DNA of 64,000 nucleotides from a virus (IMGVR_UViG_3300037313_001148:1-64000); one strand, 5' to 3'. Positions 3,090-49,243 are shown, numbered from the stretch's first letter. Program-made: numbers and translations. The notes: generated by a model not told the origin, from the sequence alone.

Positions 3090-3340
3090 GCTCCTCCTTT
3101 CCAGGCTAGGTAATCCGCTTGAAGCCTCTGAAGCACAGCGTACGCCACGTCGATATTCCCCCTGGCGTCCCTCGGAGCCAATTGGAGCGATGCCCGGAAA
3201 GCCACGTCTTCTCCGTTGTCGATGCGGTCAATCAGATCGTTTCCACGATTAATCATGTATTCTTTTGGCCCGGTTACACTCTCTTCCGTAGCCATAAAAA
3301 CTCCGACACGCTTGACAGGAACGTCGAATCCGAAGTACAT
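3086..3340 (-). CDS. hypothetical protein
   Basis: ATG 3340 after aaaggaaa; 4-nt overlap with the downstream gene. Confidence 0.6.
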   Translation of the reverse strand: MYFGFDVPVKRVGVFMATEESVTGPKEYMINRGNDLIDRIDNGEDVAFRASLQLAPRDARGNIDVAYAVLQRLQADYLAWKGGA

Positions 3341-3394
3341 TATATGATTTCCTTTGCGTGTTGTCTGACAAGCCGAATTAGTTGCACGTCTCAT

Positions 3395-3628
3395 TCAATT
3401 AACAGGCAGATACTTGATCTGAACATCATCGGTGCATGATTCAGGCTTGGCCCACTTCCAAAGCTTCCCCTGGCGATCGATCATCCAATGAGACCGGAAC
3501 CGGCTTGGCTGTTTGTCGGTAGCCGTCCAGCTTGCGAGATGCAAGAGATAGATCGGCCGTTGTTCGCTGATAGCTTGGCGTTGCAACTCTATCACGAGCT
3601 TCATGGGAAATTGCGGAGCTTTGGTCAT
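3395..3628 (-). CDS. hypothetical protein
   Basis: 77-aa ORF co-oriented with the block. Confidence 0.5.
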   Translation of the reverse strand: MTKAPQFPMKLVIELQRQAISEQRPIYLLHLASWTATDKQPSRFRSHWMIDRQGKLWKWAKPESCTDDVQIKYLPVN

Positions 3629-3696
3629 TGTCGGAATCTCCCGGCGCCCCTGGATTTGATTCGAGATAAGGGGCCGTCCGTGGCCCCATCCCCCAT

Positions 3697-4614: not shown

Positions 4615-4664
4615 ATAGAAGTGCTCCGGATTCCAAGGGGTTTGTATTCAGTCGATCCAGGGTA

Positions 4665-4693
4665 ATGATATTGCACAATGTCCGGTAAGTCTA
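4665..4693 (-). promoter_or_regulatory. sigma70-type promoter for ardC
   Basis: minus strand TAGACT-17 nt-TATCAT; ATCCTGAAAA upstream. Confidence 0.55.
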
Positions 4694-4758
4694 GAGGATG
4701 TTTTCAGGATTTTCACGCCAGGACTTCCGTGTCCCGGCGCCCCTGCCTTTTGACCCCC

Positions 4759-5325
4759 TTATGGACTCTGGGGAGTGGTGGTAACATTCACGAGAATGCC
4801 GGAGAACACAGTCAAATCAAGATCTTCCCATGAGAACATCATTCGCATGATTGAATCAGAGGGCACGCAATGCGTGTCTTGAGTCAGGTCACTTAGGGCT
4901 TGGCAGCGATTTTTGACCCAAGTTCGGTTGCACATTTTTCCATTCAAATAAGGTCTGATCTCTTGAACCCAAATCGCCGAGATGGGTTCCCGGAATCTGA
5001 CAGTGTATCCATAATTAACCGCAATATCAACATACGGTTTCATATGGATATTCAGAACATTGCAGTTATCCACAATAACGTAATCGGTCTCGCGCTCCAT
5101 AGCGAACCGAGCATGACTGAAACACCATTCATGCGCGGCAGGGAGTCGGGAAGGATCGAAATTCTTGACGTAGGTATATCGATCCCAGCCGAAGTAATTG
5201 TCCGCAGAGCAAACCGCCACAGAGTAAGGGATTCCCCGTGAATCCAATTCGCGACAGATCGTCCGTGCTTCGGTGGACTTCCCCGATCCAGGCAGACCAC
5301 GCATGAGATAGAGAGTCTTTTTCAT
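4759..5325 (-). CDS. AAA_33 / polynucleotide-kinase-like P-loop kinase
   Basis: LYLMRGLPGSGKST Walker A, CSADNYF, VIVDNCN, HCVP..I.RM. Confidence 0.8.
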   Translation of the reverse strand: MKKTLYLMRGLPGSGKSTEARTICRELDSRGIPYSVAVCSADNYFGWDRYTYVKNFDPSRLPAAHEWCFSHARFAMERETDYVIVDNCNVLNIHMKPYVDIAVNYGYTVRFREPISAIWVQEIRPYLNGKMCNRTWVKNRCQALSDLTQDTHCVPSDSIMRMMFSWEDLDLTVFSGILVNVTTTPQSP

Positions 5326-5343
5326 CGCCATTGCCCTCAAAAA

Positions 5344-5555
5344 ATGCATGCACTCATTGAACATGCCGAACTACTGAACAAACGTTCACAACGTCCTAGA
5401 ATCGCTTATACGGCCCGCCACGCTATCGCCGGGCGGGAAGGTAGGATCTATCTACCACACTCCAGGAGATGCCACTACAAGCCAAAGAGAGCCGATTTTC
5501 GCCCGGCCCGGCCGGCAGCCCCAAGCCGGGCCAGGCGAAGTGCATCCATGCACTC
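5344..5555. repeat. intergenic module A, similar to 8919..9129
   Basis: atgcatgcactcattg; tcctagaatcgcttatacggcccg (22/24 identical to module B); ends in gtgcat-cc-atgcac. Confidence 0.65.
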
Positions 5556-6030
5556 AATCGTATATTACGCCAACGACTCGACCGCTAATCCCATTGGGAT
5601 CACGGAAGATCCGGTATCGGTGTCCAGCGCTCAATCCTGTATTAATGTTCCGAAAACTGTCCACATGTTCAACTGCACGTTGTGCCATTTCCAGGGACAC
5701 AATCTTGAAAGTTGTTGACCATGTTTTCCCATGATCTCCCGAGAATTGCAGCACATCCATTGCGATTGGGGAGAAAATGCTATTCAAGTATCTTTCCCGC
5801 CGCGTATCGGCGTCATGCCGTTCCATCATCTCGCAAAATTCCACGGCCATTTCCGCGCCCGACTCCAACGCCAGTTGCGCGGCAAATCGGGAGATCGCAT
5901 AGACGTTGTGAATAATGCCGAAATGAAACCATTTGACGATCTCACGCCGTTTGCTCGGGTCGGAAATCCAAGATTCGAGCATGATCGCCAGGTTGTCCAT
6001 CTTCAGTTGCGAGCTAATTGAAGTTGCCAT
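5554..6030 (-). CDS. hypothetical protein downstream of a solitary CRISPR repeat
   Basis: 158-aa ORF, ggag RBS; repeat ends 27 nt before the ATG. Confidence 0.6.
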   Translation of the reverse strand: MATSISSQLKMDNLAIMLESWISDPSKRREIVKWFHFGIIHNVYAISRFAAQLALESGAEMAVEFCEMMERHDADTRRERYLNSIFSPIAMDVLQFSGDHGKTWSTTFKIVSLEMAQRAVEHVDSFRNINTGLSAGHRYRIFRDPNGISGRVVGVIYD

Positions 6031-6057
6031 TGTGATTTGCTCCGTAGGTTGTGCGCA

Positions 6058-6088
6058 GTTTCAATCCACGTTCCGCGTGAGAGGCAAC
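6058..6088 (-). CRISPR. solitary degenerate type I-C CRISPR repeat
   Basis: minus strand GTTGCCTCTCACGCGGAACGTGGATTGAAAC (31 nt), similar to the 15384 repeat; no array. Confidence 0.75.
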
Positions 6089-6123
6089 GAAAAGAAGGCC
6101 GGCAAGCCCAATGCTTGCCGGCC
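6089..6123 (-). terminator. intrinsic terminator after the helicase
   Basis: perfect 11-bp stem ggccggcaagc/gcttgccggcc followed by TTCTTTT on the minus strand. Confidence 0.75.
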
Positions 6124-6158
6124 AGTCACATCATCGCTTGCCGGCCGGTTACATCATC
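6113..6158. repeat. 23-bp tandem duplication
   Basis: gcttgccggccagtcacatcatc / gcttgccggccggttacatcatc. Confidence 0.8.
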
Positions 6159-7842
6159 GTTGGGTCAATTGCTCTTCAGTCGTCCCGTTTCGCTTAGGCT
6201 TGGGTTCGACCCAGTAAAGTTCAGACGTTGCGCGGGTGATCGCCACGTAGATCAGGTTGCTCTCTTGCTTCCGTGCCCATGATTTCTTGGCCATCGGGTG
6301 CGGCAGCAACTCGGGATGAAGGATCCAAACCCGCTCCGACTCCAACCCCTTGACACGGTGGATTGTCGAGAGCACGACTCCGGTCGTCTTGTCTGAAAAG
6401 ATCGACAAAATCTTATTCTTGACGTCGTTGATATTTTCGCATCCTTCGGCCAGGACTTTGAGAGTATCGATCCGGTCGGCCAAACGCTGAGACTTGGCTT
6501 CTTGACCGGGCTTGGCCAGCTTGGCGATTTCGCGATTTCCCCAAGCGTCGATGCGCTCCCAAACGTCGCCGTTCTTTTGTTCCCGGCCGATCTTGTCGAG
6601 AAGAGAGCACAAATTCTTGCCGATGTCGCTTCCCCGGATCGTTGCTTTAACGCCGTTGCGGATCAGCGCCATACAATGCTCGGCCAGGGGAGCAGTCGTG
6701 CGACAGATCACCATATCCCCATCTTTGACGTTCTTCATGAAATCGTCTTCCTTGACGTTTTCCACGGTTCCGGGCTTTGCGGTCGGGGACGCTTGGATAT
6801 GGGGAACGATCTCCTGGGCCGCTTCGATGACCTTGGACGGGCAGCGCCAGCAAATCGAGAGAGGGAGTTCGACGGCCGAGAAGTCTCGCACCACGCTATC
6901 GATGGCTTCCGGATCGGCACCCCTAAATCCGTAGATAGCTTGGTTCCTGTCGCCGACGAACACCGCGCGCCCACCGTTTGCCGTCAGCCGCCGGATCATC
7001 TCGACTTGGATCGGGTTCAAGTCTTGACTCTCATCGATAAACACGTACTGATAGTACGTGGGGAACGCCATGTTCTTTGCGATCGGCAAGAGCAACTGAT
7101 CGTTGAAATCGATCATGGTTTCACAATTGAAACCGTCCTCGTATGTGCGAAGAAGCACGTCGAAAAACTTGTCTGTGCTAACTTCTTTGGGATCCGGGAT
7201 GTCGATGTCGTATCGATCGCAAAGTTCCATCACGTCAGCGCGGGTCGGCAGACCACGGATCGCGCCGTAGCCGAACCCCTTGAACAGCGCCACAAGCCGG
7301 CGGATCGGCGGGAGCATCAACGAAAACTCAATCTCATCCTTGCGATTGAGCATGTCATAACCCACGACGCCCTTGGCCACGAAATCGGTCTTGGAGTCGT
7401 TGAGGGTGGGCTTGACCGTCGCATTTTTGAAAACGATCCCCGCGCCGAGGGAGTTGAGGGTCTTCGCGGTGCAGTTCGGCAGAGAGATCCGCGCCGTCAG
7501 TTCTTCGGCGATCACTTTGTTGAATGCGAGCAAAAGGATGTTCGGCCGCTTGCCACCGTAGGTCAGGGCCGCGCAGGCGTCAATCAGTGTGGATGTCTTC
7601 CCCGACCCCGCCACGGCGTTGACGACCGCGTGGCCGCGTCCTTCGAGAAGCCATTGATAGATGTTCACTTGAAAAGACGTTGGGGCGCGGCCGGTCTTCT
7701 TCGTGAGCCGGTCAATCGTGTCAAGTACCAGCGTCGAGTGTTCCGTGGCCGTCTTGCGCTTGCGGTTTTTGGCGGGAGTGATCGCGACGGGGACCGGGCC
7801 AAAGTCGATGGAAGCGTCGGCGGTCTTGCGCTTGCGTGCCAT
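6154..7842 (-). CDS. UvrD/Rep-family SF1A helicase
   Basis: AVAGSGKT, FIDESQD, GDRNQAIYGFRGA, STIHRVKGLE, YVAITRA; start MARKRK at 7842. Confidence 0.93.
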   Translation of the reverse strand: MARKRKTADASIDFGPVPVAITPAKNRKRKTATEHSTLVLDTIDRLTKKTGRAPTSFQVNIYQWLLEGRGHAVVNAVAGSGKTSTLIDACAALTYGGKRPNILLLAFNKVIAEELTARISLPNCTAKTLNSLGAGIVFKNATVKPTLNDSKTDFVAKGVVGYDMLNRKDEIEFSLMLPPIRRLVALFKGFGYGAIRGLPTRADVMELCDRYDIDIPDPKEVSTDKFFDVLLRTYEDGFNCETMIDFNDQLLLPIAKNMAFPTYYQYVFIDESQDLNPIQVEMIRRLTANGGRAVFVGDRNQAIYGFRGADPEAIDSVVRDFSAVELPLSICWRCPSKVIEAAQEIVPHIQASPTAKPGTVENVKEDDFMKNVKDGDMVICRTTAPLAEHCMALIRNGVKATIRGSDIGKNLCSLLDKIGREQKNGDVWERIDAWGNREIAKLAKPGQEAKSQRLADRIDTLKVLAEGCENINDVKNKILSIFSDKTTGVVLSTIHRVKGLESERVWILHPELLPHPMAKKSWARKQESNLIYVAITRATSELYWVEPKPKRNGTTEEQLTQR

Positions 7843-33627: not shown

Positions 33628-35304
33628 TTGAGAAATCAAGGGGGTTTTTCTTTGAGCGTTGCAACTTTTCCGATCCCTGGCTCCTCTTACCATGATCTCG
33701 CCATCAAGGCTGAGCGGTGTCGGCGATCGCTCGCCTACTTCACGCGAACCTTCTGGGATGAGATTGTCCCCGAGAAACTAACCTGGAATTGGCACATGGA
33801 TGCCGTGTGCGATCATCTCCAGGCTGTTTCCCAAGGATCAATACAACGACTTATAATCAATATTCCCCCTGGATCCGCGAAGTCTACGTTAGTAAGTGTG
33901 ATGTGGCCTGCATGGGAATGGATCGACCGGCCGGGTGAGCAATCTCTTTTTGGTTCATATGACGAGAAGCTTGCCCTTCGTGACTCGGTGCGCTGCCGCA
34001 AGGTCTTCGATTCTGAGCGATACCGGACGATCTTCCAGCCGGACTGGAAGATGGCAAAAGACCAAAATGCGAAAGGTTTCTACACTAACACGGCCAACGG
34101 GAATCGTTACACGTTCGGTCTGAACTCCTCCGGCAAGATGGGCTGGCGCGGAAACAAGGTTGTCCTGGACGATCCTAACGATATCAAGGCTCGGTTTGAC
34201 ACGCGGATCAAGGCGGATGCCTGGGACGTGTTCGCCAGCGTGCTTCAGACCCGCGTCAACGACCTGCCGACCGCGAAATTTCTGATTGTCCAGCAGAGAA
34301 CATCTTTTGATGATTTCACTGGCCGAATTCATGACATGGAATCCGACCCCGAAGTCATGGCGGTAATGGAGAAGATCGGCAAATGGGAAACGGTCGTGAT
34401 TCCGGCCGAGTTCGACCCTTCCCGGCGGTTCTTCACGAGCATTGGTTGGACTGACCCTCGCAAGGAAGCGGGGGAGAACTTCTTCCCCAAAAAGTACCCC
34501 GACGAATCTCTCGAGGGAATGAGGCTAGTCCTTGGAGACGAAGGGTACGAGGGTCAGTTCAACCAATCCCCGGCTCCCGCCGGAGGGCAAAGATTATCGC
34601 GTGATCTCTTCTGCAAGTATAAGCGAGTTTCCGGCGACATCATCGAGCTTACCAACAAATTCGGCAACAAATCTATCATCAAGCTTGGATTATGCTGGTC
34701 GTTCGTCTCGGTAGATCTCGCCGCCTCTGAGAAGCAAACAGCCGACTACACCGCATTTTCGGTCTGGGCCGTCACGCCTACCTATGATATGATCCTTCTC
34801 AATGTTGTTAATGAAAGAATGGGAGAACCTAAGATCATTGAGAAGGCTATTGCACTACACGCCTTTACTGGATATAACGGGCGGAAGCATCTTGCCTTTG
34901 TCGTTGAAGACAACGGTTTAGGACTGCCGATTGCTCAGAGCATGGCCAAACATGGACTTCCGGTCATGCAAGTCCATATTCATAGGACTGACAAGCTTGT
35001 GCGGTCGGCAACCGCCGTGATTCGCGCCAATGCCGGCGGGATCTACCTTCCCGAAGACGGACCAGAGTATCCCTGGAAAGAACCCTGGCTTCGTCAACAC
35101 GAGCGATTCCCTGGAGACGAGCACGACGACATGGTGGATGCGACATCGCTAGCCGCATCGGCTCTCTTCGACATGGGAATCGCTGGTTTGCATGGCGGGG
35201 AGTTCCTGAAGCATTCAAAGAAGAGTGCTCACGAGGTAATGGAGCCTCAGAAACAGGAACTCCCCGCCGCGACCAAACAAAACAAAAGATTATTTGGCAC
35301 ATGA
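33628..35304 (+). CDS. terL: terminase large subunit
   Basis: LIINIPPGSAKST Walker A, VVLDDP Walker B, SVDLA nuclease motif, FPGDEHDDMVDA; start codon uncertain. Confidence 0.93.
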   Translation: MRNQGGFSLSVATFPIPGSSYHDLAIKAERCRRSLAYFTRTFWDEIVPEKLTWNWHMDAVCDHLQAVSQGSIQRLIINIPPGSAKSTLVSVMWPAWEWIDRPGEQSLFGSYDEKLALRDSVRCRKVFDSERYRTIFQPDWKMAKDQNAKGFYTNTANGNRYTFGLNSSGKMGWRGNKVVLDDPNDIKARFDTRIKADAWDVFASVLQTRVNDLPTAKFLIVQQRTSFDDFTGRIHDMESDPEVMAVMEKIGKWETVVIPAEFDPSRRFFTSIGWTDPRKEAGENFFPKKYPDESLEGMRLVLGDEGYEGQFNQSPAPAGGQRLSRDLFCKYKRVSGDIIELTNKFGNKSIIKLGLCWSFVSVDLAASEKQTADYTAFSVWAVTPTYDMILLNVVNERMGEPKIIEKAIALHAFTGYNGRKHLAFVVEDNGLGLPIAQSMAKHGLPVMQVHIHRTDKLVRSATAVIRANAGGIYLPEDGPEYPWKEPWLRQHERFPGDEHDDMVDATSLAASALFDMGIAGLHGGEFLKHSKKSAHEVMEPQKQELPAATKQNKRLFGT

Positions 35305-37935: not shown

Positions 37936-40900
37936 ATGGACGCGATCACATCAAGTGTTGTAGATACAAATTCGCTCCATGAACAGCCTCAATCGCGGGC
38001 CGTAGCCGAAAGCGCCTTACTTGCGGCGGCGCAAGCCCTGCGCAATATCGCCGAGAACAAGAATCAAGACCCTTACGGCCAAATCCTCTCCCAGCAAAAA
38101 GATTACTTGGTCCCACACCAATTCACTTACGCATCCGTTTGGAATTGGTATCAAAAATATTATTATAATTACTTCGACGAATCTTTAATTAACTCTCAAC
38201 AAAACTCTCTGGCCATGTGGAGGGATGGACTTACTTGTGAACTTCACTGGCATCGAACGCTGCCTACCATGTCCCTGCCGTCCACGGTCGAAGTAGACGA
38301 TGAGGACGATCAGGATCAGGTCAAGATCAAGAAACAAGCCCAGCAAATCATCGACAGACTTCCATATTTTCAAAATCTGAAACAACAACTCCTCCAGGCG
38401 ATTTTCTTCGGCAAGAGCGGGTCACAGTTCCTCTACCACCACAAGAAGATTGCCGGCAAGGATCGGTTTACCGTCCGGTCGCACATTCCCATCCAGGGCG
38501 ATAAAATCGTTTATGGGTGGTCCGAAGGGAATGACGAGATCCCCGGAGTCTTTGTATATCGCACGTCGCCGATGTTCAAAGATCCGGAGATGAAAAAACA
38601 TCTTCGATTTCTTGATAAAGGGCCGGCGTTCTTCCTGGAGAATCCGTATCACCGCGACCAGTTCATCATCCACAATTTCAACCCGACCGATTCTGATTAT
38701 TTATTTGAGTCTGAGAAAGCCCTGATGATCCACGGCCGGGGCATGCGTGATGCCCTGTACTGGACGTGGAACATGCGGGCCGAACTTCTCGGCTGGGATC
38801 TCAATGCCCTTCAGCGGGTCGGCGCGAATGGGATGTTGTATGCGTTCTTCCAATCAGGGGACGACGCCTCGAAAAATGCAGTTCTGGATGCATTGATGTC
38901 TCTAATTCAATATAACGTTGCCGCTTTTCCCAAGAATTTCGGCGACGGCTCCGGCGACATCATTCAGAGGATTGATCCGTCTCAAGTCGGCTACGACGTT
39001 CTCTATCAACTTATCACGCATCTAGAAGAGATCATGCGTAGGTGCTACCTGGGACAAAACCTCTCATCCCAGTCAGCACCGACCGGCCTCGGTAGCGGCG
39101 TGGCCGATCTTCAGGCTGGCACATTTCAGAACATCGTTCTGTTCGACGCCGGCTGTCTCTCTGAATGCATCGACGACCAGTTATTTCAGAATATTATCAA
39201 ATACAATCTATGGGAATACCACGGCAAGGTCTATCGAGGCTCGGACCTGCCATTCTCGATGCGGTACAAGATCCAAGTTGAGCGAGAGAATGTTAAAGAG
39301 TTGATTGATGCCGCCGCCACCCTGATTCAGATGGGCGTTCCGCTTGACGTTGAAGATCTTCGAGACAAGGCCGGCTTTGTGGCTCCGAAGACCAAGGCAA
39401 CCACGGTAGCCATGCCTGGAGGGCAGTCAGGCGGCGTGGATAATCAACACGTTCTCACGTCAGAACACAAATCGGCACCCGGAAGCGGCGGTCAATCTCA
39501 GTCGCGGCCCGACACTCCCCTTTCTCCGTCGTCCTCTTTGCCCGCGAAGCGGGCAACTCAACCTGAGCAATTTGCCGCCAACGAAACAACAGGCTATTAT
39601 AACTTCACTCCATCCGAGCGGATCGGCTACGAGTTGGCGAACATGGGCGGGGATCTCGCTCTTGGCGGCTGGTATCACTCTTCGACCCGGCGGGCCTGGG
39701 TGTCGATTTCGCCTCACACGCCGATCGACAAGATTCGCCAGCTTGGCAACGCGCTCGAGCAAATCGTCGGCCCTGACAAGTGGAAGATCGTCGTCGAAAC
39801 TCCGCCCTCCGGGCCTGGATGGCAAAAGGTTTCAACAGATGAATTTATCATCGAACCAGAATGGTTCTCAAAGGAGAACTGCGGGACTGGAGCGGGAGGA
39901 TTCCAGTCAGGGAACACCTGCGCGAAGACGAGAAGCAACGAAGAAAATCGCTCGAGACTAAAGGACTTCTCCGGATGGCTTTCTCCCGAAGGGAAGCTCC
40001 TGATTCACGCTGGTTCTCACGGAAAGACCCTTCGTGATTACGGGGTGAACGTTTCGCCAAACCGCGCGTTGAACGAGGGTTATACATGGATGAATCAAAG
40101 TGGGAGCACGCTCTACGTCGAAGTTCATCATTCCAGGGTCAGCAAGGTCAAATCTTCTCTTGAAGACCTGCTTAACGAAAACGTCAAATCTGTAATCATC
40201 GAAGTTTTCGGAGATTCTGGAAAGAAAACTAAAGAATTTAACTTCTCGTTTAAAAATGGATTCTTGCATGACGATCTGGAAAAGTTTGCCAAGGATCGCG
40301 GCGAGGATCCTGGAGTAATGATCGCCCTGACTCTTCATCCCGACCTTGCCCGCCAGCTTGCTCTGAAGGACGGCGAAGACCCCTCAGATTTCCACATCAC
40401 CCTAGCTTACCTAGGTCGCGTATCTTCGATCGGCCAAGAGGCGGTTGAGATGGTGCACAAAGTTTGCGAGCTTCTGGCATTAAATTCTGAGCCTCTACGC
40501 GGCTCCGTGGGGGGCGTTGGACGTTTTCCGGCCTCAGATTCGTCGGACGGCAAGGATGTCGTATACGCGGGCGTGGACGTTCCTCGATTGACCGATTTTC
40601 GGGCCGAACTGACCCATGTTCTCGGCCTGGCCAAAGTCCCCTACAAGGCCAACCACGGATTTACGCCTCACATCACGCTTAAATACATCGACAAACAAGA
40701 AGACATGCCAGTCTCCCGGATCGGCTCGTTCCCGGCTGAGTTCCTTTCCCTTGATCTTTACGTGGGGGACGAGGTTACTTCCTACTCTTTCTCGGAGTAT
40801 AGCGGTCCTGGCCGGGAGAATTTCGAGCCTAATCCTTGCGGGGATACGAAGGGCGGTTTTCAGCCTCACAACACCTGTGCTAAGAGTGGTGGCGATTCTC

Positions 40901-41496
40901 GCAAAAACCCCCCAAAGCTTGACCCTCAGCATCCGTCGTTCAACGAAGAAGACGAGTCTGTGTTCGCTTTGGAAGAAAAGTCCGAAGCGTGGTTTAACGA
41001 TCTCGGTAAAGATGAAAAACATGCAATAAGAGAATATATTCATTCAATGGATTATAAGGAGGTTGGCAAGAGGTTTCGATCCGGGGACACGACCAAAGAG
41101 GACATAGCTTTGGTCGATGCGATCAAATCGGCTCCGATCACAGACAAGATTGCGTGGCGTGGCCTGGACAGCGAATTCGGAGGAACCCGGAATGAACTAA
41201 AAGACAAGATGAGGAATTCCATTGGACAGGTTCTCGAGTGGAAAGCCCCGACTTCCGCCTCTCTGTCCGAAAGAATTGCCGGGACATTCGGTGACGTACT
41301 ATTTAAGATTGTAAGCAATAATGGAAGATATATAAACCAGGCAAGCCCGACATTATACAAAGAAGAGAAAGAGGTAATGTTCCTCCCCGGTTCCAAGTTT
41401 AAGGTGACTGACGTTAGAGAGGATGTAGTTTTTGACAATGATATGTTTGGTTCTAAAAATTTTGTTGTTTTACTGAAGGATGTTACCGATGAATGA
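37936..41496 (+). CDS. portal protein (DUF935-like) fused to a 2H phosphoesterase (Acb1-like) and an ADP-ribosyltransferase domain
   Basis: follows terL; N-terminal ~500 aa portal-like (LGQNLSS..GLGSG); two HITL motifs; WRG / TSAS / EEKEV ART triad. Confidence 0.82.
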   Translation: MDAITSSVVDTNSLHEQPQSRAVAESALLAAAQALRNIAENKNQDPYGQILSQQKDYLVPHQFTYASVWNWYQKYYYNYFDESLINSQQNSLAMWRDGLTCELHWHRTLPTMSLPSTVEVDDEDDQDQVKIKKQAQQIIDRLPYFQNLKQQLLQAIFFGKSGSQFLYHHKKIAGKDRFTVRSHIPIQGDKIVYGWSEGNDEIPGVFVYRTSPMFKDPEMKKHLRFLDKGPAFFLENPYHRDQFIIHNFNPTDSDYLFESEKALMIHGRGMRDALYWTWNMRAELLGWDLNALQRVGANGMLYAFFQSGDDASKNAVLDALMSLIQYNVAAFPKNFGDGSGDIIQRIDPSQVGYDVLYQLITHLEEIMRRCYLGQNLSSQSAPTGLGSGVADLQAGTFQNIVLFDAGCLSECIDDQLFQNIIKYNLWEYHGKVYRGSDLPFSMRYKIQVERENVKELIDAAATLIQMGVPLDVEDLRDKAGFVAPKTKATTVAMPGGQSGGVDNQHVLTSEHKSAPGSGGQSQSRPDTPLSPSSSLPAKRATQPEQFAANETTGYYNFTPSERIGYELANMGGDLALGGWYHSSTRRAWVSISPHTPIDKIRQLGNALEQIVGPDKWKIVVETPPSGPGWQKVSTDEFIIEPEWFSKENCGTGAGGFQSGNTCAKTRSNEENRSRLKDFSGWLSPEGKLLIHAGSHGKTLRDYGVNVSPNRALNEGYTWMNQSGSTLYVEVHHSRVSKVKSSLEDLLNENVKSVIIEVFGDSGKKTKEFNFSFKNGFLHDDLEKFAKDRGEDPGVMIALTLHPDLARQLALKDGEDPSDFHITLAYLGRVSSIGQEAVEMVHKVCELLALNSEPLRGSVGGVGRFPASDSSDGKDVVYAGVDVPRLTDFRAELTHVLGLAKVPYKANHGFTPHITLKYIDKQEDMPVSRIGSFPAEFLSLDLYVGDEVTSYSFSEYSGPGRENFEPNPCGDTKGGFQPHNTCAKSGGDSRKNPPKLDPQHPSFNEEDESVFALEEKSEAWFNDLGKDEKHAIREYIHSMDYKEVGKRFRSGDTTKEDIALVDAIKSAPITDKIAWRGLDSEFGGTRNELKDKMRNSIGQVLEWKAPTSASLSERIAGTFGDVLFKIVSNNGRYINQASPTLYKEEKEVMFLPGSKFKVTDVREDVVFDNDMFGSKNFVVLLKDVTDE
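39510..39556 (+). repeat. dispersed motif+GNA hairpin element, copy 6 (in frame in the portal linker)
   Basis: cgacactcccctttctccgtcgtcc + ttgcccgc-GAA-gcgggcaa (same hairpin as copy 1). Confidence 0.9.
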
Positions 41497-42256
41497 TAAC
41501 AGGCCTAGTGCCCGGCTGTTCTTTGGATCATGGGAAGAGTTTGGATTTGTCGGAACCGGGAAGGCTGACAGCGAGGGTCCGGAGAAATTCGAGCCTGATC
41601 CATGCGGAGACGCTTCAGGCGGATTCCAAAAAGGGAACACCTGTGCCAAGGGCGGCAATCCGTCTGGCAAGCCTGCAAAGTCTCCTGCCGGCTGGGGTGA
41701 CGTAGGCGGCGACGACGACCACGCCGAATCTCTCGCAAAGCGAATGAAAAATATCGACAAATTCTCACTAATCGCCGCCAAGAACGGCTTTTACTTCATG
41801 AAGAAGGGAAGCGGGTTCTACGAAGCCTACGACGCCGCACAGGGAACCGGCAAAGCGGCGACCGCCATTGCATCGTTCTACGCCAATAAAAATGCGATCA
41901 TATTTAATGAAAAGAATGAATTCTACTCCGATCCCAAGGGGTACATGGAGAGAATGGGAGATACCGGCTGGTTCAGTACGAACCATGAAGATCATGTCAT
42001 TGTTCACGAAATTGGACACGGCAAGCACTACAACACGGTTGGCGAGAAGCGATATCGCGAGATTAAGGCGTCGGTCATTCCCGACGACGTGCTTCCCCTG
42101 GTAAAATCGGAAGTGAGCCGTTATGCCGGCGGTAAACAGGGAAACCCGCTCGAGGTTGTGGCGGAAATGTACACGGCCATGAACCTGACCGGCAAGAAAT
42201 TCAGCAATACTCTCATGAATTACTATAAATCACTAGGTGGCCCTGAATCCGATTGA
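41480..42256 (+). CDS. zincin metallopeptidase-like effector
   Basis: CG..GGF..GNTC motif, VHEIGH, VSRYA..NPLEVVAE. Confidence 0.75.
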   Translation: MLPMNDNRPSARLFFGSWEEFGFVGTGKADSEGPEKFEPDPCGDASGGFQKGNTCAKGGNPSGKPAKSPAGWGDVGGDDDHAESLAKRMKNIDKFSLIAAKNGFYFMKKGSGFYEAYDAAQGTGKAATAIASFYANKNAIIFNEKNEFYSDPKGYMERMGDTGWFSTNHEDHVIVHEIGHGKHYNTVGEKRYREIKASVIPDDVLPLVKSEVSRYAGGKQGNPLEVVAEMYTAMNLTGKKFSNTLMNYYKSLGGPESD

Positions 42257-42280
42257 CGATCAATCCCAGGACATGAACCT

Positions 42281-42517
42281 ATGACAATCTTTCCTCAATG
42301 CATGGTTTGCCGGCACCTTGAAAAAGGCAAGCCAATGCATTGCAAAGCGTTCCCGCGAGAAATTCCTGACGAGATCGTTTTCAACGAATTCGATCACAGA
42401 AAGGAATTCCCTGGCGATCATGGGATTCAGTTTGAGCCGTTGCCTGGCAAACATTCTCCATTCGAGGAATCTTCTAATGAAAAACCTTCTCGCCCTTATT
42501 CTTCTGATCGTGGCTAG
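42281..42517 (+). CDS. small Cys/His protein, putative cognate immunity protein
   Basis: CMVC..CKAFP.EIP.EI..FDH..FPGD.GIQFE, directly after the effector. Confidence 0.65.
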   Translation: MTIFPQCMVCRHLEKGKPMHCKAFPREIPDEIVFNEFDHRKEFPGDHGIQFEPLPGKHSPFEESSNEKPSRPYSSDRG

Positions 42518-42677
42518 CGGCTGTTTCGTCGAAGAAACGAAGATCGAACCGCCCAAGCTTCCTGCACCTGACCAGCCGCGCCGGCGTTGCCCTGGGCCTC
42601 GCTGTCCCAAGGAACTCGGAAAGTGTCCAGTTCATGACGAAAAGGGAAACCTCCGGTCTTCCGGCGAAATCAGTTAA
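42477..42677 (+). CDS. small Pro-rich lipoprotein
   Basis: signal peptide with lipobox VASGC. Confidence 0.55.
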   Translation: MKNLLALILLIVASGCFVEETKIEPPKLPAPDQPRRRCPGPRCPKELGKCPVHDEKGNLRSSGEIS

Positions 42678-42681
42678 TCGC

Positions 42682-42963
42682 ATGTTAAAGACTTTAATCC
42701 TTCTATTGTTCCTCTCGGTTACGGGATGCACTCAGGATCAACCGGCCATTCCTCCGGTTGATCCTGTTCGCGTTCCCCATCCCTATTCATCGCCAAATCC
42801 CCGCCCTTTCCGTTGCCTCTGCGGTGATGGCTGGTGCACTGGAAACCCCTCTGTTTGGTGCCGGTGCCAGAATCGAATCTGTGTTTGCCCCGGATCTCAC
42901 TATCCCTCTCCCGCTCCGCGCCCATACCGTCCCTGTCCCTCTCCGCTTCCCCGACGAAAATAA
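42682..42963 (+). CDS. small Pro/Cys-rich lipoprotein
   Basis: signal peptide with lipobox VTGC. Confidence 0.55.
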   Translation: MLKTLILLLFLSVTGCTQDQPAIPPVDPVRVPHPYSSPNPRPFRCLCGDGWCTGNPSVWCRCQNRICVCPGSHYPSPAPRPYRPCPSPLPRRK

Positions 42964-45714
42964 TTGGGATATTTAAAAATGAAATTATCTCAACTCTTCA
43001 ACTATCTATCTACGGAACCCATTCAATGCAAGACGACGGCAAGCCGAAAGACCCAGAGAAGCCTCGAGACGTACTCCAGGGCGGCGAACAGCCCGACCCA
43101 TATCCGGACGATGAGGAGATCCTTGATCGCGTCTGGAAGCGGATTGCCGAATCCAGAAACGTTCGCCAACCAAAAGGATCCTGACAACTGCGGAACCGGC
43201 GCGGGCGGTTTCAAGCCCGGTAACACCTGCGCCAAAGGCAAAGGTTCCAAGCGGTCATTTGGTAAAACCCAACGCCCCTTCGGTGTCGCCCGCGATTACC
43301 AAAAAGAAGAAACATTCCTAAATAACACCAAACGTATCTTCGGTAAGCCGTTACCCGAAGAAGACGCAATGTCTCTGGCCGGCATCCTTGACGGGATGTC
43401 GGTCAGATTCAGTATGTATGACGAATATTCAGGTAAAAAGTTTCTCAAACACATCGAAGTTGAAGGAACTGATCTAGATACCCAGACATATACGCATCGA
43501 AAAATCGGTATCGATCATCGTGGTAAAAAATACATTTACAACGCAGTATTCGTTATCGATGACCCGAACGCGCGAGGCAAAGGAATCGGCATCGAAGTTC
43601 TCGGCCGGCAAATCGAGAACGCGATCGAGCAGGGTTTCGTCTACATGGAGACGGATGCCGCCCGGCTCGACCACGAAGATCCTAAACGTCAAATGATCGG
43701 TTACAAGGTATGGCCCAAATACGGATACGACGGAGAAATTCCCTGGGAAGAGATCGAAGACTGGAATCCTGACCTAGAAATCCCAGAAAAGTTCAGAGAC
43801 ATGAAAATGATCTCTGAACTTTATATGTCCAAGGAAGGCCGTGACTGGTGGGAGAAGTACGGAGGGACGGTCACTCTTCGATTCGACCTGACGGAAGGCA
43901 GTTTAAGCCGTCAAATCTGGGATGCGTACCTGGAAGAGCGTCAGAATCGGGCGCCCAAAGAGACAAGCCCCGCCATCTCCTCAGAAGAACGCCGCAAAGA
44001 CGAGGAAAAAGTTCTCCAGGCACGCGCCGATATGCTCATGTATAACATGAGAAGCCCAAACTTCCTGAAATCGATCCGCTCCGACCCTCGGACCCTCAAA
44101 TCAGTTGTCCGAGAATTCCAGACCGTAAGCCACCTGATCCCGGCTGACATTGCCGACGATATTGAAGACATCCTAGGTCTCAAGAATTACCCCGACTCCT
44201 ACTCTCGTAATCCTTGCGGCGACAGCGAAGGCGGATTCGAGAAGGGTAACACCTGCGCCGCCTCAAACTCCGGTGCGGCCGGAGGCCGCACGGTGACGAC
44301 GGAGGAAAGGGCAGTGCGGGAGGGCGAACATATTAAAAGACAAGCGGATCTAATTAGAAAACTCGCGCCCAATCTCGGGGTGGGCATGAAAGGTGGCAAG
44401 TTCTTTCAGGCGGTTTTCGATCGCGAAGCCGACGACGTGATTGCCGCCTTTTACCCCGAGAAACGGACGATCTTTTTCAATGATCTTCATCCGACATTTT
44501 GGAGTGATCCGGCCTCGGAGATGGCGCGGATTCACGACACGGGATTTCTCGGCTCGCCCGACCCCAACCACATCGTTTATCACGAAATCGGCCACGCCAA
44601 ACATTACGAGAGTGCCGGCCACGAATTCTACAACGAGATGCGGACAGAGCCGGTCGATCCAAAATATCGCGATATTATTAAAGAGCATGTATCACAATAC
44701 GCAACCATGAACCCCCTGGAATTTGTTGCGGAAGTTTACGCGGGCATGATTTCAGGCATCGATTACAATGAACGTGACCCGATGATTATGATTTACTACG
44801 ACATGCTTGACGGGCCTTCCGCCGAATTTCAAGATCAAGAATCATACATCAAAACATTCAATTTCCTTCTTGAACAATTCGCCAAGTCGGCCGACAATTG
44901 CGGTGACGGCGCCGGCGGATTTAAACCAGGCAATACCTGTCAGCGCGGCAATGGCCGATTCAAACCGCCGGCCGGATCGTCAAAATCAGCCGCCAACACC
45001 CCTCCTTCTCCGTCGTCCCATTCGCGGCCGAAGGCCGCGACTTCATCCAAGTCGATTACTAAACTGCTTTCCTCTCCTCACGTCAAATCTCAAGCCAAAA
45101 CTCTGGCGGGGGGAGCGGAACCTTCAATGCAGACCGAGCTTTCCTCTCGCGCGGTGACAGCCTTGAAGTTTTACAAGCCGGTAACAGGCGACAAGCGAAA
45201 ATCGGCCAACGAAAAAGAACAGGAAGTGGCCTCAGCCTTGGGTGGCGAATGGCTACCAAACCACGAGCCGGCTGACGCCTTGATTCCTGTGGGGAAGCGT
45301 AAGATCGGCCTCGAGATCAAGACGATGTTCGAGAACGAGAAGGGAGAGATCCGGATCGACGATGGCGCCATGAAGAACAAGGTCAACTGGGTTCGTCAAA
45401 AGATGTGTGATCGTTTTGACATGGTTGTCATCAATCATCAGACCGGAGAGATGTGGTATCGTCGTGGAATCGGCAATTTCTCAATCAATTCTATGTACAA
45501 AGTTAAAGACTATAACGAACTCAAGAAATTGATCGAAGCGAAGCCGAGTAGCCTTCCTGCATCCGCCCAGTACAAGGAAGATACCGAGTATCATCGCGCG
45601 TTGACTCACGGTCCCTCTTACGCCCGCCTTCTCGAGCGTGCCGCCGCCGCCGACGCTGCCAAAAAGGCTCGTCGGGACAAGTCTCGAGCTAAAGCTAAGG
45701 AAGCAATCGTATGA
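42964..45714 (+). CDS. multi-effector polyprotein: GNAT-like + zincin + PD-(D/E)xK nuclease-like
   Basis: ARGKGIG..GY.VWPKYGY; YHEIGH..SQYA..PLEFVAE; ADALI..GLEIKT; three CG..GGF..NTC motifs; start uncertain (possibly TTG 43123). Confidence 0.75.
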   Translation: MGYLKMKLSQLFNYLSTEPIQCKTTASRKTQRSLETYSRAANSPTHIRTMRRSLIASGSGLPNPETFANQKDPDNCGTGAGGFKPGNTCAKGKGSKRSFGKTQRPFGVARDYQKEETFLNNTKRIFGKPLPEEDAMSLAGILDGMSVRFSMYDEYSGKKFLKHIEVEGTDLDTQTYTHRKIGIDHRGKKYIYNAVFVIDDPNARGKGIGIEVLGRQIENAIEQGFVYMETDAARLDHEDPKRQMIGYKVWPKYGYDGEIPWEEIEDWNPDLEIPEKFRDMKMISELYMSKEGRDWWEKYGGTVTLRFDLTEGSLSRQIWDAYLEERQNRAPKETSPAISSEERRKDEEKVLQARADMLMYNMRSPNFLKSIRSDPRTLKSVVREFQTVSHLIPADIADDIEDILGLKNYPDSYSRNPCGDSEGGFEKGNTCAASNSGAAGGRTVTTEERAVREGEHIKRQADLIRKLAPNLGVGMKGGKFFQAVFDREADDVIAAFYPEKRTIFFNDLHPTFWSDPASEMARIHDTGFLGSPDPNHIVYHEIGHAKHYESAGHEFYNEMRTEPVDPKYRDIIKEHVSQYATMNPLEFVAEVYAGMISGIDYNERDPMIMIYYDMLDGPSAEFQDQESYIKTFNFLLEQFAKSADNCGDGAGGFKPGNTCQRGNGRFKPPAGSSKSAANTPPSPSSHSRPKAATSSKSITKLLSSPHVKSQAKTLAGGAEPSMQTELSSRAVTALKFYKPVTGDKRKSANEKEQEVASALGGEWLPNHEPADALIPVGKRKIGLEIKTMFENEKGEIRIDDGAMKNKVNWVRQKMCDRFDMVVINHQTGEMWYRRGIGNFSINSMYKVKDYNELKKLIEAKPSSLPASAQYKEDTEYHRALTHGPSYARLLERAAAADAAKKARRDKSRAKAKEAIV
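44273..44318 (-). repeat. inverted degenerate copy of the motif+hairpin element
   Basis: minus strand cactgccctttcctccgtcgtca next to the 8-bp hairpin gtgcggcc/ggccgcac. Confidence 0.5.
44994..45040 (+). repeat. dispersed motif+GNA hairpin element, copy 7 (in frame, NTPPSPSS)
   Basis: caacacccctccttctccgtcgtcc + tcgcggcc-GAA-ggccgcga. Confidence 0.88.
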
Positions 45715-46022
45715 GCACAAATATTGTATTTGATAATCACTACAACGTGGCTGTTGCTTCGTCAGGCGGCTGGATGGATTTCACGGATTGGATTAGTTCG
45801 CTGCCTGTCCATGAATTTCCCAATCTTTGTCACTTAATCAAGTATGGATGGACCGGAAACCTCCGTTCGCTCGCGACAGAGATTGACCACGCTCTCCGCA
45901 ATTATCCTCCGAGGAAGATTGGAGTACGATCGACAACTCAGGGAATTCTCCAACAGATCAAATCTCAAGAACATAAAGCTCAACTAGTAATGGTCGGAGG
46001 GGGAATTGTTCCTCCGCGTTGA
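45711..46022 (+). CDS. putative immunity protein
   Basis: 4-nt overlap directly after the nuclease-like C-terminus. Confidence 0.5.
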   Translation: MSTNIVFDNHYNVAVASSGGWMDFTDWISSLPVHEFPNLCHLIKYGWTGNLRSLATEIDHALRNYPPRKIGVRSTTQGILQQIKSQEHKAQLVMVGGGIVPPR

Positions 46023-46152: not shown

Positions 46153-47655
46153 ATGGCAACGGACACACTTCCCGCCTCTCGCGTCACACCGCCGCGCCTC
46201 GAAGATCCACGTCATTACGTGCGGGTTCCGCGCGTGCCGATCCTCGACCGCCATCTCCGTCAAATCACTAATCCGGAGACTGGAGAAACTCGGGTCACGG
46301 CTGTCGATAAAGACCAATTGCAAGTTATCTGCAATAATTCAAATAATCGTGCCAATCGAGGCGATCTCGCCCTGATTACGATCGGGCACACCGACCGCAG
46401 AAAGCCCGAGCACGAACAACCACCATTGGTCGGCTATCTCAAGGATTTCATTGTCGGCCAGCACAACGGCGAGCCGACAATTCTTGCCGATCTCTACATT
46501 AAAGCAGAAGAGAATCAGAGAGAAGTTCTGGCCAACTTCCCTCGCCGTTCGGTCGAAGTCTGGAATAAGACGCTTCCAAATGCATATATCGATATTCTTG
46601 CACTTCTTCGACGCGCGCCCGAACGTGACCTTGGACTGGTCACTCATCACTCGAAGCCATATGATCTAGAATACTTTGAGTGTTCATGTGATAAACAGGA
46701 GAAAACCACGATGCCGTTGCCTCCCTCGCCTGATTCCGACGTTGATCCGACCGAAGGGAAGCCGGCCTCTCCTTCCGATCCTGATCCGAATCCGGATCCG
46801 GCCAACCCGCCGCAAGACAACCCGGCAGAGCCTAACGAATCGGAGCCGAGCGAAGAGGCTGTGACTCGGTTTGCGGACGCCATCGCCGATCGGATGGTGG
46901 GCCGACTAATCGAACATGATGATTTCCATCAAAAGATTGCCCAGGCGGCTGCCAAGTTTCACGCCAGCAATCAAGAAATGATTGATGCGATCATCATGCG
47001 AATTTCTGAACTCCTAGAAACGGCGTCCGAGCAGTCCGAAGGATCGCCGCCGAAAAACGAACCGGAAAAACTAGAAGGCGGAACGCCGATGGCTTCGCCT
47101 CCTTCTGGAACGAATACTTATGTCCCTTCGTCTGGAAATGAAGAGGTTGAAAAAATGAGCAAGGAAACAGACAATCAGATTGCTGTTCTGACCAAGCAGG
47201 TTGAGGATCAGCAGAAGCTAATCAATCAACTCCTTGATGCAAATAAGGCCCAGCAAGAGCAGTTCTCGAAGAATTCTCGTCGGATCCGGCTCGAGGGGAT
47301 TCGTCGAAGCGGTGTCGATGTGGATGTGGACGGCCAGCTTGAGCTTATGGAAAAGCTCGATGACTCCACCTTTGAGGCGTTCGCGAAGAACATCGAAACC
47401 AATTTCCCGAAGATCCCTGTCAACAACGCTCGCCTTGAGACGGCGTATTTCTCCATGATTCCGGAGAATCCGGCGGCAGAAACATTGGACAGCGAACTGA
47501 CCAAGCAGGAGTTCCTTGACGGTGCGGTGGAGAAGTTCCGCAAGGAAAACAATATCCCTATCGCCAATTCGACTGACGGTGGAACGGAACTCCTGAATCA
47601 GTATTTCGAGAAGGCCGACCGGAGCAAGTACGGCGTCAAGAAGAAGACCGCCTAA
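46153..47655 (+). CDS. prohead protease/scaffold (Mu gpI-like)
   Basis: ITIGHT..PLVG..FPRRSVE..ALL..PER N-terminal domain; acidic Pro-rich linker; coiled-coil C-terminus; position before capsid genes. Confidence 0.75.
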   Translation: MATDTLPASRVTPPRLEDPRHYVRVPRVPILDRHLRQITNPETGETRVTAVDKDQLQVICNNSNNRANRGDLALITIGHTDRRKPEHEQPPLVGYLKDFIVGQHNGEPTILADLYIKAEENQREVLANFPRRSVEVWNKTLPNAYIDILALLRRAPERDLGLVTHHSKPYDLEYFECSCDKQEKTTMPLPPSPDSDVDPTEGKPASPSDPDPNPDPANPPQDNPAEPNESEPSEEAVTRFADAIADRMVGRLIEHDDFHQKIAQAAAKFHASNQEMIDAIIMRISELLETASEQSEGSPPKNEPEKLEGGTPMASPPSGTNTYVPSSGNEEVEKMSKETDNQIAVLTKQVEDQQKLINQLLDANKAQQEQFSKNSRRIRLEGIRRSGVDVDVDGQLELMEKLDDSTFEAFAKNIETNFPKIPVNNARLETAYFSMIPENPAAETLDSELTKQEFLDGAVEKFRKENNIPIANSTDGGTELLNQYFEKADRSKYGVKKKTA

Positions 47656-48169: not shown

Positions 48170-49243
48170 ATGGCTTATCAGCCTTACGCGGGTTATCCGT
48201 CTGGAACTAACACATATGTTCCTAATTTTGCCGCTTCTCAATCGCTAGTTGTCGGCTATAGTCGCCAGCCGAACACATTTCAGCTTCCTCGCTATACTCA
48301 ATATGTGATGGCGAAGAACAATACCGGATGGTATTTCGTCTGGACTTCGCGTCAAGCCGCGAGAATCCTTACGTCGGACGACCGAGAGCATGTCTGGTCT
48401 GACGGGGACGCCGCGCCGACCGGGATCAACAACGTGGATTCCGGACAGTGGTATTTGTTCGGAACCACACGGCGAGCTTATCCGTTTATGCTTGGCCAGA
48501 TGGCTGTTGAGCAGGCGGAATACCCCCTGATCGCGGCCGTCGCGGGTGATGCGGCTCAACAGTGCATGACCGCGCGAACGTTGCTCACCTACAATGCTCT
48601 TTCAGGCGCGTCGTGGGGGAGTAATACTGCCGCCGTCAACGGCACGATCCTTGGCGCCGGCCAGGGCTGGAACACGGGACAGGACGGCCTCGGAACCAAT
48701 CCCGGACCCAATATCAAGAAATCATTCCAGTATGCCGATAAGATTATCAATCTTCAGACTATCGGCGTTGTTCAGCCTCGCGACACAACTGTCGTGGTTA
48801 ATCCCACCACGGCTATGGCGATGGCGGCGTCCGGGGAAATCCAGGATTATATCAAGCAGTCTCCATTTGCTCTTGCCCAGCTTCGGGGTGACGTGCCGAA
48901 CCAGAACGGCAGATGGAACCTGCCGGATACACTCTACGGCCACCCGATCGCCGTTGAAGACGCGGTGCGAGTATCAACGAACAAGGGTGCGTCCTCCACG
49001 ACGATTGGATACGTCGTTCCTGACGGCGAAGCCTACATGCTGGCCCGCCAAGGCGAGCTTGAAGGTCTCCAGGGAACTCGGTCGTATTCAACTGTTCAAA
49101 TCTTCTTCTATCAAGATGAAATGACAGTTGAAACGATGTACGACGCGAACAATCGTCGGTATTCGGGCCGGGTCGTTTCCAACTTCTCGCCGGTCGTTGT
49201 CTCGACGATTAGCGGGTTCAAGTTCACGAGTTGCCTGGTCTGA
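48170..49243 (+). CDS. major capsid protein
   Basis: 357 aa after scaffold and cement genes, aggag RBS. Confidence 0.8.
   Translation: MAYQPYAGYPSGTNTYVPNFAASQSLVVGYSRQPNTFQLPRYTQYVMAKNNTGWYFVWTSRQAARILTSDDREHVWSDGDAAPTGINNVDSGQWYLFGTTRRAYPFMLGQMAVEQAEYPLIAAVAGDAAQQCMTARTLLTYNALSGASWGSNTAAVNGTILGAGQGWNTGQDGLGTNPGPNIKKSFQYADKIINLQTIGVVQPRDTTVVVNPTTAMAMAASGEIQDYIKQSPFALAQLRGDVPNQNGRWNLPDTLYGHPIAVEDAVRVSTNKGASSTTIGYVVPDGEAYMLARQGELEGLQGTRSYSTVQIFFYQDEMTVETMYDANNRRYSGRVVSNFSPVVVSTISGFKFTSCLV

Follow-up and report, generated by a model that had tools for sequence, protein, structure and literature searches.

A two-cysteine tag at the start of effector cassettes in the head-assembly module of an uncultured phage

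Introduction

In bacteriophage T4 a capsid-targeting sequence (CTS) is carried by the internal proteins and by Alt, and is removed by the gp21 prohead protease. Proteins that enter the host together with the phage DNA act before phage gene expression and thus provide the earliest layer of counter-defence. Apart from those of T4, P1, N4 and the giant phages, such proteins are difficult to identify by sequence. Two surveys predict that effectors joined to a portal, MuF or protease protein enter the capsid and are injected, and fusions of a portal with a 2H or a PBECR domain are already described there as polyvalent proteins (Iyer 2017, PMC5512222; Iyer 2022, PMC9503650). Term searches of both papers turned up neither a repeated cysteine-loop tag nor a motif at module starts. 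Here we analyse the window, which comprises bases 1-64000 of a 90,669-base IMG/VR virus record (IMGVR_UViG_3300037313_001148, estimated to be 78% complete). In three consecutive genes of the window a 14-residue motif with two cysteines, called the tag below, opens one module after another. The phage is uncultured and about 90 kb in size, and the region is its head-assembly module. Portal-effector fusions are known; what appears to be new is the tag, the rule of one tag per cassette with free cargo genes included, and the combination of a universal tag with a flank that varies with head type.

Results

The six tags and their flanks

The feature is covered by three co-directional open reading frames (ORFs), P0001, P0002 and P0003, followed by P0004 of 103 amino acids (aa). 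The exact pattern C-G-x3-G-G-F-x3-N-T-C occurs six times on the plus strand, at 39880, 40837, 41603, 43189, 44215 and 44899, always in the frame of the cargo ORFs. The pattern had no match in 100 dinucleotide shuffles, and the reversed control pattern had none in the whole 90,669-base record. A profile hidden Markov model of the tag found no seventh or degenerate copy in the window (next best score 5.6 bits, against 36-48 for the six). The six tags differ at many synonymous positions, and conservation therefore lies at the protein level. Tag 3 is listed with its gene below; the other five, with their flanks, are:

39859-39921, plus strand: EWFSKEN flank and tag 1 (CGTGAGGFQSGNTC)
40816-40878, plus strand: ENFEPNP flank and tag 2
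43156-43230, plus strand: ETFANQKDPDN flank and tag 4
44194-44256, plus strand: DSYSRNP flank and tag 5
44872-44940, plus strand: EQFAKSADN flank and tag 6

A sequence-only reading of this DNA had placed the six tags at these coordinates, each at the start of a module, and the pattern scan, the shuffles and the profile agree with it. It had also named eight [E/D]-x-[F/Y]-[A/S/E] sites at module boundaries and three similar sites in the scaffold. All of them are present: EQFA at 39565, EWFS at 39859, EKFA at 40279, ENFE at 40816, EKFE at 41582, ETFA at 43156, DSYS at 44194 and EQFA at 44872 in the cargo genes, and EQFSK at 47257, EAFAK at 47374 and EKFRK at 47530 in the scaffold part of a 500-aa protein encoded downstream.

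An AlphaFold2 (AF2) model of P0002 was computed with 64 extra tag segments in the alignment. The predicted local distance difference test score (pLDDT) of the tag was 50-54, with no secondary structure and with disordered flanks; the zincin C-terminal half of the same protein reached 86-98, and the zincin core is predicted with confidence. The model shows the tag neither as an autonomous fold nor docked onto the zincin. Without predicted structure, the tag resembles a short linear motif that needs a partner.

Distribution of the tag

A scan of IMG/VR with the back-translated pattern yielded at least 119 loci with the tag. Among 110 non-redundant tags, positions left free in the pattern were conserved (T2 in 80%, G3 in 95%, G10 in 93%, and D or N at -1 in 89%), so these are homologous motifs and not chance matches. 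A stretch rich in Gly, Ser and Ala follows the tag. When a 34-column tag profile was searched against 1.84 billion representative proteins, 693 proteins matched at E<=1e-3, 120 of them at E<=1e-10; some carry up to 6-7 tags, and lengths go up to 4085 aa. Variants share C-G ... G-F ... G-N-x-C but have loops of unequal length (CGTGxGGF, CGANxxGGGGF, CGIGxxGF). The tag has no model in Pfam, NCBIfam or PHROGs, no sequence match in the PDB and none in the ESM Atlas, and searches of the papers on polyvalent proteins, NAD-ADPr and MuF toxins and of other literature text found no mention of it. It appears to be new.

The relation of the tag to head genes, on which the sequence-only reading had built its proposal, extends to other genomes: in 106 of the 125 loci that bear a tag, a head gene is either fused to the tagged ORF or its neighbour. 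Pfam domains found in tagged ORFs include the head families Phage_portal, Phage_portal_2, Portal_Mu, Peptidase_S78, S78_2 and Phage_Mu_F, and as cargo ADP-ribosyltransferase families, GNAT, Zeta toxin, AAA_33 kinases, Fic, DRAT, ParB_N and 2H. With head domains labelled by iterative searches seeded from Pfam-defined segments, the tag lay C-terminal of the portal in 113/113 cases and of the S78 protease in 13/13, and on either side of MuF; three unrelated portal families bear C-terminal tags. Free tagged ORFs stand beside an untagged portal, MuF or protease in 38 loci, which are short; these loci weaken the idea that free tagged cargo must dock onto a tagged anchor.

Fewer than 60 residues precede the first tag in 58 of 150 representative proteins (3-10 residues in some), and fewer than 60 follow the last tag in 7 of 150. 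Because the tag is often N-terminal and rarely near the C-terminal end, it belongs, judging by these positions, to the module downstream of it. The median spacing from tag to tag is 285 aa. Recognised modules begin 14-55 aa past the tag, and the linker ranges from 0 to about 120 aa. In the portal-tag-nuclease protein of the Singulisphaera acidiphila DSM 18658 prophage (locus L135, NC_019892, positions 2179-4986, minus strand) the linker between tag and nuclease consists of about 25 tandem KPNAST-like repeats, so the length of the linker after the tag is very free.

In the close relatives P0038, P0112 and P0014, all with a Mu-type portal, the GNAT-fold, 2H and zincin modules recur in different orders, which makes tag, linker and domain together the unit of shuffling. 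The modules spread over many unrelated clusters, counted on small clusters only since single-linkage clustering also gave one giant cluster of segments with several domains. Tags within one protein or genome were more alike than tags from different genomes, both at the variable positions (0.70 vs 0.56) and in the flank (0.35 vs 0.17). This holds when the downstream modules are unrelated, and none of 300 permutations reached the observed value. The likeness suggests a shared genome-encoded partner, contact between tags, or recombination at tags.

Head-fused trains of effectors or 2H domains that have no tag at all also exist; the tag therefore marks a subset of the polyvalent proteins and not the whole class. 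In one further protein (P0164, 1189 aa) the precomputed Pfam annotation gives Phage_capsid (PF05065) and 2H together, and effector fusion may extend to capsid proteins besides portal, MuF and protease.

In cellular genomes the pattern had 13 matches among 185,579 species genomes, which is about the level expected by chance, and seven of these look real. Four of the seven are on contigs long enough to judge (two Singulisphaera, a Pirellulaceae metagenome-assembled genome (MAG) and a MAG labelled 'archaeon'), and all four sit within prophage head modules. In the two Singulisphaera and the Pirellulaceae MAG the tagged ORF is fused to an HK97-type portal or follows it directly. Beyond prophage head modules, cellular genomes essentially lack the tag. 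The 'archaeon' MAG (locus L137, JBAXMY010000004.1, positions 1947-7667) has a 1907-aa ORF with a perfect tag at residue 28; either a phage contig was mis-binned here, or an archaeal virus has a tagged element.

The flank is specific to the Mu-type clade

All six tags of the window have [ED]x[FY] 7-11 residues upstream. In other loci the motif lies within 15 aa upstream of 9/92 tags, which equals the background of 10%. ExF was accordingly rejected as a general part of the tag: the sequence-only reading had seen such a site before every module boundary, and the motif is specific to the Mu-type clade. Here the Mu-type group comprises the loci with a Mu-type portal, protease or capsid. F or Y at -9 to -2 was found in 21/22 non-redundant tags of this group vs 144/454 elsewhere (Fisher test, p = 1.4e-9), and a full [ED]x[FY] match in half of its tags vs 5% elsewhere, statistics that are inflated by shared descent and by the post-hoc choice of the motif. 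The S78 and lambda-type groups have flanks of their own, for example ..AFAQSRN and ..KKETELD.

The cargo and the protease-scaffold protein of the window together (2860 aa) contain E-x-F-[AS]-K five times, where shuffles predict 0.09; the rest of the 35,675 aa in window ORFs of 100 aa or more has no copy. In other Mu-type loci the scaffold parts of the homologous protease-scaffold proteins retain REKF[SEA]RE and PEEFAKA. Whatever module lies upstream, E-x-F-x-[KR]-D stands directly before the 2H domain in P0001, P0038, P0112 and the tagless P0159. The flank thus behaves as a cleavage motif of the Mu-type clade's prohead protease would, and is a candidate for it. The protein that might supply this protease is:

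46153-47655, plus strand: 500-aa putative prohead protease fused to a scaffold (by position and residues)

Its N-terminal part of about 180 aa (46153-46710) is a conserved domain with invariant H79, D113 and S133, and its C-terminal part is helical and scaffold-like. The spacing between His and Ser is 54 residues, near the 51 of S78 proteases; kinship with S78 was tried and rejected (hhalign probability 0.5%). By position and residues the N-terminal domain is a putative prohead protease, and it may represent an undescribed family of such proteases in Mu-type heads.

Cargo of the portal fusion

P0001 consists, in order, of a Mu-type portal, module M1a, tag 1, module M1b, a 2H domain, tag 2 and an ADP-ribosyltransferase:

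37936-41496, plus strand: portal-cargo polyprotein P0001, 1186 aa (ORF, translation)
38215-39375, plus strand: Portal_Mu domain, residues 94-480 (Pfam, E 5e-28)
39556-39879, plus strand: module M1a, about 100 aa, between the portal and tag 1 (no Pfam match)
39565-39579, plus strand: EQFAA boundary motif after the portal, tagless, candidate protease site
39922-40320, plus strand: module M1b, about 130 aa, ending with EKFAK at 40279
40321-40836, plus strand: 2H phosphoesterase with two HxTx motifs (Pfam)
40879-41493, plus strand: ADP-ribosyltransferase of Alt/VIP2 type (Pfam ADPrib_exo_Tox)

The portal matched Portal_Mu (PF06074) with 98.8 bits against a gathering score of 23.9, over model positions 7-335 of 336. 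The relative P0112 has EHFAA at the same place after its portal, and homologues of M1a take the same position in P0112 and P0014. M1b gave a weak match to Tox-HDC (E 0.097).

The sequence-only reading had named a 2H phosphoesterase and an ADP-ribosyltransferase as cargo, and both were confirmed with Pfam, the latter marginally. The 2H domain contains FHITL and PHITL and passed two gathering scores, those of 2_5_RNA_ligase2 (E 1.9e-10, 41.4 bits vs 27) and LigT_PEase (E 3.9e-8, 33.8 vs 23.3), which places it in the 2H superfamily. The narrower link to Acb1 was dropped, as the match to PF23474 stayed below threshold (E 0.25; 11.5 bits, cut-off 27). The ADP-ribosyltransferase scored 24.1 bits against a cut-off of 23.4 for ADPrib_exo_Tox, its translation has the R-S-E motifs (WRG, TSAS and EEKE), and it has homologues in 43 tagged or head-locus proteins.

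Cargo genes 2 and 3 and the small genes

41480-42256, plus strand: cargo gene 2 (P0002), 258 aa (ORF)
42281-42517, plus strand: 78-aa Cys/His-rich ORF, CxxC…HC, zinc-ribbon-like
42634-42963, plus strand: 109-aa ORF, lipoprotein-type signal (…LLFLSVTGC), body rich in Pro and Cys
42964-45714, plus strand: cargo gene 3 (P0003), 916 aa (ORF)
43231-44214, plus strand: GNAT-fold module with a helical extension (AF2, Foldseek)
44257-44898, plus strand: second zincin, a paralogue of the P0002 zincin (alignment)
44941-45711, plus strand: low-complexity linker and PD-(D/E)xK-like nuclease module (conserved signature)
45711-46022, plus strand: P0004, 103-aa partner gene (conserved pairing)

P0002 has a 41-aa leader, an EKFEPDP flank, tag 3 (41603-41644), a linker and a zincin (HEIGH at 42005-42019). 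P0003 has a leader, tag 4, the GNAT-fold module, tag 5, a zincin, tag 6, a low-complexity linker and the nuclease-like module. At least two effector domains are therefore joined in P0001 (2H and ADP-ribosyltransferase) and in P0003 (GNAT fold, zincin and nuclease-like), as in polyvalent proteins.

Four further proposals of the sequence-only reading concern these genes. Its GNAT-like domain was upheld by structure prediction: the module had an AF2 pLDDT of 81, the PDB matches listed by Foldseek were mostly GNAT acetyltransferases (prob 0.9-1.0, E about 2e-3), and motif A is present as RGKGIG. The module itself had no Pfam match, and its homologues were found in 35 proteins. For the two zincins the motifs held, in that HExxH, the third His and Y-A..E..AE are invariant in eight aligned sequences; the match to a known family was weak (Peptidase_Mx E 0.008, PDB 4l7a E 0.016, Foldseek prob 0.38). 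In the last module of P0003 the signature E..PxD..(L/V)E(I/V)K is kept in eight homologues, each of which is the last module after a tag. This signature, typical of PD-(D/E)xK-like nucleases, is what points to that assignment, and Pfam gave no match to the module.

Small immunity genes had been proposed as well, and here only the 103-aa gene found some support. In the Singulisphaera acidiphila prophage a homologue of P0004 (L135, 1887-2192; 29% identity over 68 aa) is encoded immediately downstream of the counterpart of the nuclease module, and this one independent conservation of the pair is compatible with P0004 acting on that module as immunity protein or chaperone. Nothing marks the 78-aa and 109-aa ORFs as immunity genes. 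The former resembles the N-termini of far longer ORFs that lie downstream of tagged portal ORFs in two other loci (L071 and L096). The latter had no Pfam or PHROG match and may be spurious, a lipoprotein being oddly placed between two cargo genes in a head module.

Neighbouring head genes

The cargo genes lie within an order of terminase (33628-35304), portal fusion (37936), protease and scaffold (46153), major capsid protein (48170) and adaptor (49346); the 500-aa protein is followed by a small scaffold-like protein, the capsid protein and the head-tail adaptor. This order, from terminase to adaptor, together with the portal fusion, gives the setting in which polyvalent proteins are found. 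The tagged genes occupy the usual place of MuF. The sequence-only reading had recognised no MuF domain, and we found none either: Pfam gave no MuF match at E<=0.1 in the window, and jackhmmer searches from two MuF seeds retrieved 64-65 domains elsewhere and none in the window. The N-terminal Phage_Mu_F domain that defines MuF polymorphic toxins is thus absent from the window.

48170-49243, plus strand: major capsid protein, Mu-type group (by position)

The product of this gene had no match in Pfam or PHROGs, so its assignment rests on position. It is 34-36% identical to ORFs in the position of the major capsid protein beside homologues of the Mu-type protease in other tagged loci. The nonapeptide PSGTNTYVP occurs both in the 500-aa protein (47101-47127, residue 317) and in the capsid protein (48197-48223, residue 10), and the pair may be a shared assembly or cleavage element. 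Further downstream, a 734-aa ORF contains two copies of …DG(S/A)YNEVFRAQIAGNL at 57985 and 58594, about 200 aa apart; it is a probable tail or fibre protein with an internal repeat.

Discussion

From the anatomy, distribution and head-gene linkage observed here we infer packaging, cleavage, ejection and a role for the tag. We consider it probable, with some reserve, that P0001, P0002 and P0003 are three cassette trains of virion-packaged effectors ('polyvalent proteins') that are cut by a protease, tagged, and ejected with the DNA. Train 1 is fused to the C-terminus of the Mu-type portal, the end that faces the capsid interior, and trains 2 and 3 are the next two genes. Each cassette consists of the boundary motif of the Mu-type clade (E-x-F/Y-x-K/R-D/N), the universal 14-residue two-Cys loop ([DN]-C-G-T/D-G-x-G-G-F-x-x-G-N-T-C), a flexible linker rich in Gly, Ser and Ala, and one enzyme domain. 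The trains would be built into the prohead, where the prohead protease encoded downstream would cut them at the boundary motifs, which the scaffold also carries. Each freed enzyme would then have its tag a few residues from the new N-terminus, like the free cargo of other phages. The enzymes would exit with the DNA and act on the host ahead of phage gene expression, their likely activities being 2H action on nucleotide signals or RNA, ADP-ribosylation, acetylation, nuclease activity and proteolysis by the zincins. The tag would serve as a cargo handle, a short linear motif for the incorporation, retention or ejection of head cargo. Our best reading of it is an N-terminal handle that would stay on the matured cargo, and this includes a metal- or redox-dependent variant.

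Several observations weigh against this account of packaged, protease-cut trains. P0003 and the 8-kb region had no match among 50,697 phage records, and no tagged phage is in culture. The tagless head-fused trains indicate that portal-linked cargo does not need the tag, and a tag with a pLDDT of about 50 offers no readable fold or partner. The N-terminal domain of the 500-aa protein has no Pfam match, no PDB sequence match and no link to S78. The likeness of flanks within a genome could come partly from shared descent or recombination, and the E-x-F-x-K-D stretch in front of the 2H domain might belong to the structure of that module.

A wider claim is more tentative. The tag may be a universal and portable address for head cargo across HK97-, lambda- and Mu-type portals, perhaps acting through metal-bridged contacts of tags with each other or with the head, with its carriers loaded and injected; we hold this to be possible, and somewhat doubtful. 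If it were true, one 14-residue profile would define a large, mostly uncharted set of injected effectors, of at least 693 protein clusters, and the tag would be a means of bringing designed cargo into phage heads.

Among the alternatives, the tag itself could be the recognition or cleavage element of a processing protease, either the prohead protease or a zincin of the trains, and would then only split polyproteins. About one tag per module and its place in linkers that AF2 predicts as disordered fit such a role, but 58 of the 150 proteins begin with the tag, some at residue 4-10, where nothing upstream could be removed, and small single-domain proteins are tagged too. S78 proteases are fused just upstream of tags, yet the tag is constant across the unrelated proteases of S78, Mu-type and lambda-type heads, and it is the flank that varies with head type. 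The zincins are the other candidate: Iyer 2017 (PMC5512222) proposes that zincins process polyvalent proteins, and the zincin domains stop right before the next tag or the protein end. A search for the zincin family of the window, however, which covered several thousand proteins and six-frame ORFs, 285 of them tagged, found it in only 13-16, and it was rejected as a universal tag protease. We regard a cleavage role for the tag as unlikely.

The tag could also be a metal-bridged or disulfide sticker, in which two tags, each with its two cysteines, share one zinc in the manner of a zinc hook, or form redox-switched loops, and so, together with the Gly-rich spacers, network the cargo on tagged portal, protease or MuF proteins. 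All variants keep both cysteines, G-F and G-N unchanged, a sticker and a flexible spacer are repeated in a multivalent layout, self-association would account for conservation over unrelated head types, and tags of one genome resemble each other despite unrelated cargo, as described above. These features have to be set against the many phages with a single tag, the 38 short loci in which free tagged cargo stands beside untagged head proteins, and the AF2 model, which predicts no hairpin; taken together they leave a sticker improbable. That the trains are toxins expressed late in the cytoplasm or released by lysis, a role already proposed for MuF polymorphic toxins, with the tag as a demarcation or recombination joint for swapping cassettes like VENN or DPxGL, we consider very doubtful: the heavy shuffling of cassettes among relatives, the many unrelated module clusters and a nuclease module with a conserved small partner gene, as in toxin-immunity pairs, would suit it, but the synonymous differences among the six tags indicate selection on protein and not on a DNA joint, the strict position C-terminal of portals and prohead proteases fits a head-interior topology, and the tag is nearly absent from the prophages of cellular genomes, where MuF toxins abound.

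On the reading that we favour, of packaged and tagged cargo, the tag would allow injected effectors to be catalogued directly from metagenomes. The tagged proteins found so far carry ADP-ribosyltransferase, GNAT, 2H, Fic, Zeta-type kinase, nuclease and zincin modules, and many unknown ones. The tag could further give a generic means of bringing reporter or enzyme cargo into laboratory phages, and it would pose a biochemical question, namely what a two-Cys, Gly-rich loop binds inside the capsid. The combination of a universal tag with a clade-specific flank leads to testable predictions on the specificity of the Mu-type prohead protease. The most accessible experimental handle is the prophage of Singulisphaera acidiphila DSM 18658.

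The closest described systems share parts of this arrangement. Polyvalent proteins (PMC5512222, PMC9503650) likewise join several effector domains in one polypeptide, among them ADP-ribosyltransferase, zincin peptidase, 2H and GNAT, with genes that lie among the head genes of portal-terminase phages; here a tag starts every cassette, and free cargo genes as well. The T4 CTS is a short N-terminal peptide on unrelated head cargo, coupled to a prohead-protease site and transferable between cargoes; the analogy with the tag is one of position. The two sequences are unrelated, and the CTS is removed, whereas the candidate cut site here lies upstream, so that the tag would stay. The CTS belongs to one phage group, and the tag spans three portal lineages.

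MuF polymorphic toxins resemble the trains in their variable, head-anchored effector domains, sometimes with a small immunity gene downstream (Jamet 2017, PMC5576092), a paper in which the tag is not mentioned. Unlike in those systems, the window has no MuF domain, and cellular genomes hold hardly any tagged proteins, whereas MuF toxins come mostly from prophages. In giant phages (SPN3US, phiKZ-like) many packaged proteins, the ejection and inner-body proteins, are matured by a prohead protease that cuts at a short motif of the clade, which scaffold-like proteins carry as well (PMC7411985, PMC10052503), a likeness to the arrangement proposed here; their motif is another one, they have neither a Cys-loop tag nor portal-fused trains, and their heads are much larger. 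Finally, polymorphic toxins too have short motifs at the border to swappable cassettes, such as VENN and the Rhs motif DPxGL (Zhang 2012, PMC3482391). Such a motif is present in a single copy, ahead of the C-terminal toxin, and in some cases is autoproteolytic, whereas the tag precedes every module and often stands at the extreme N-terminus.

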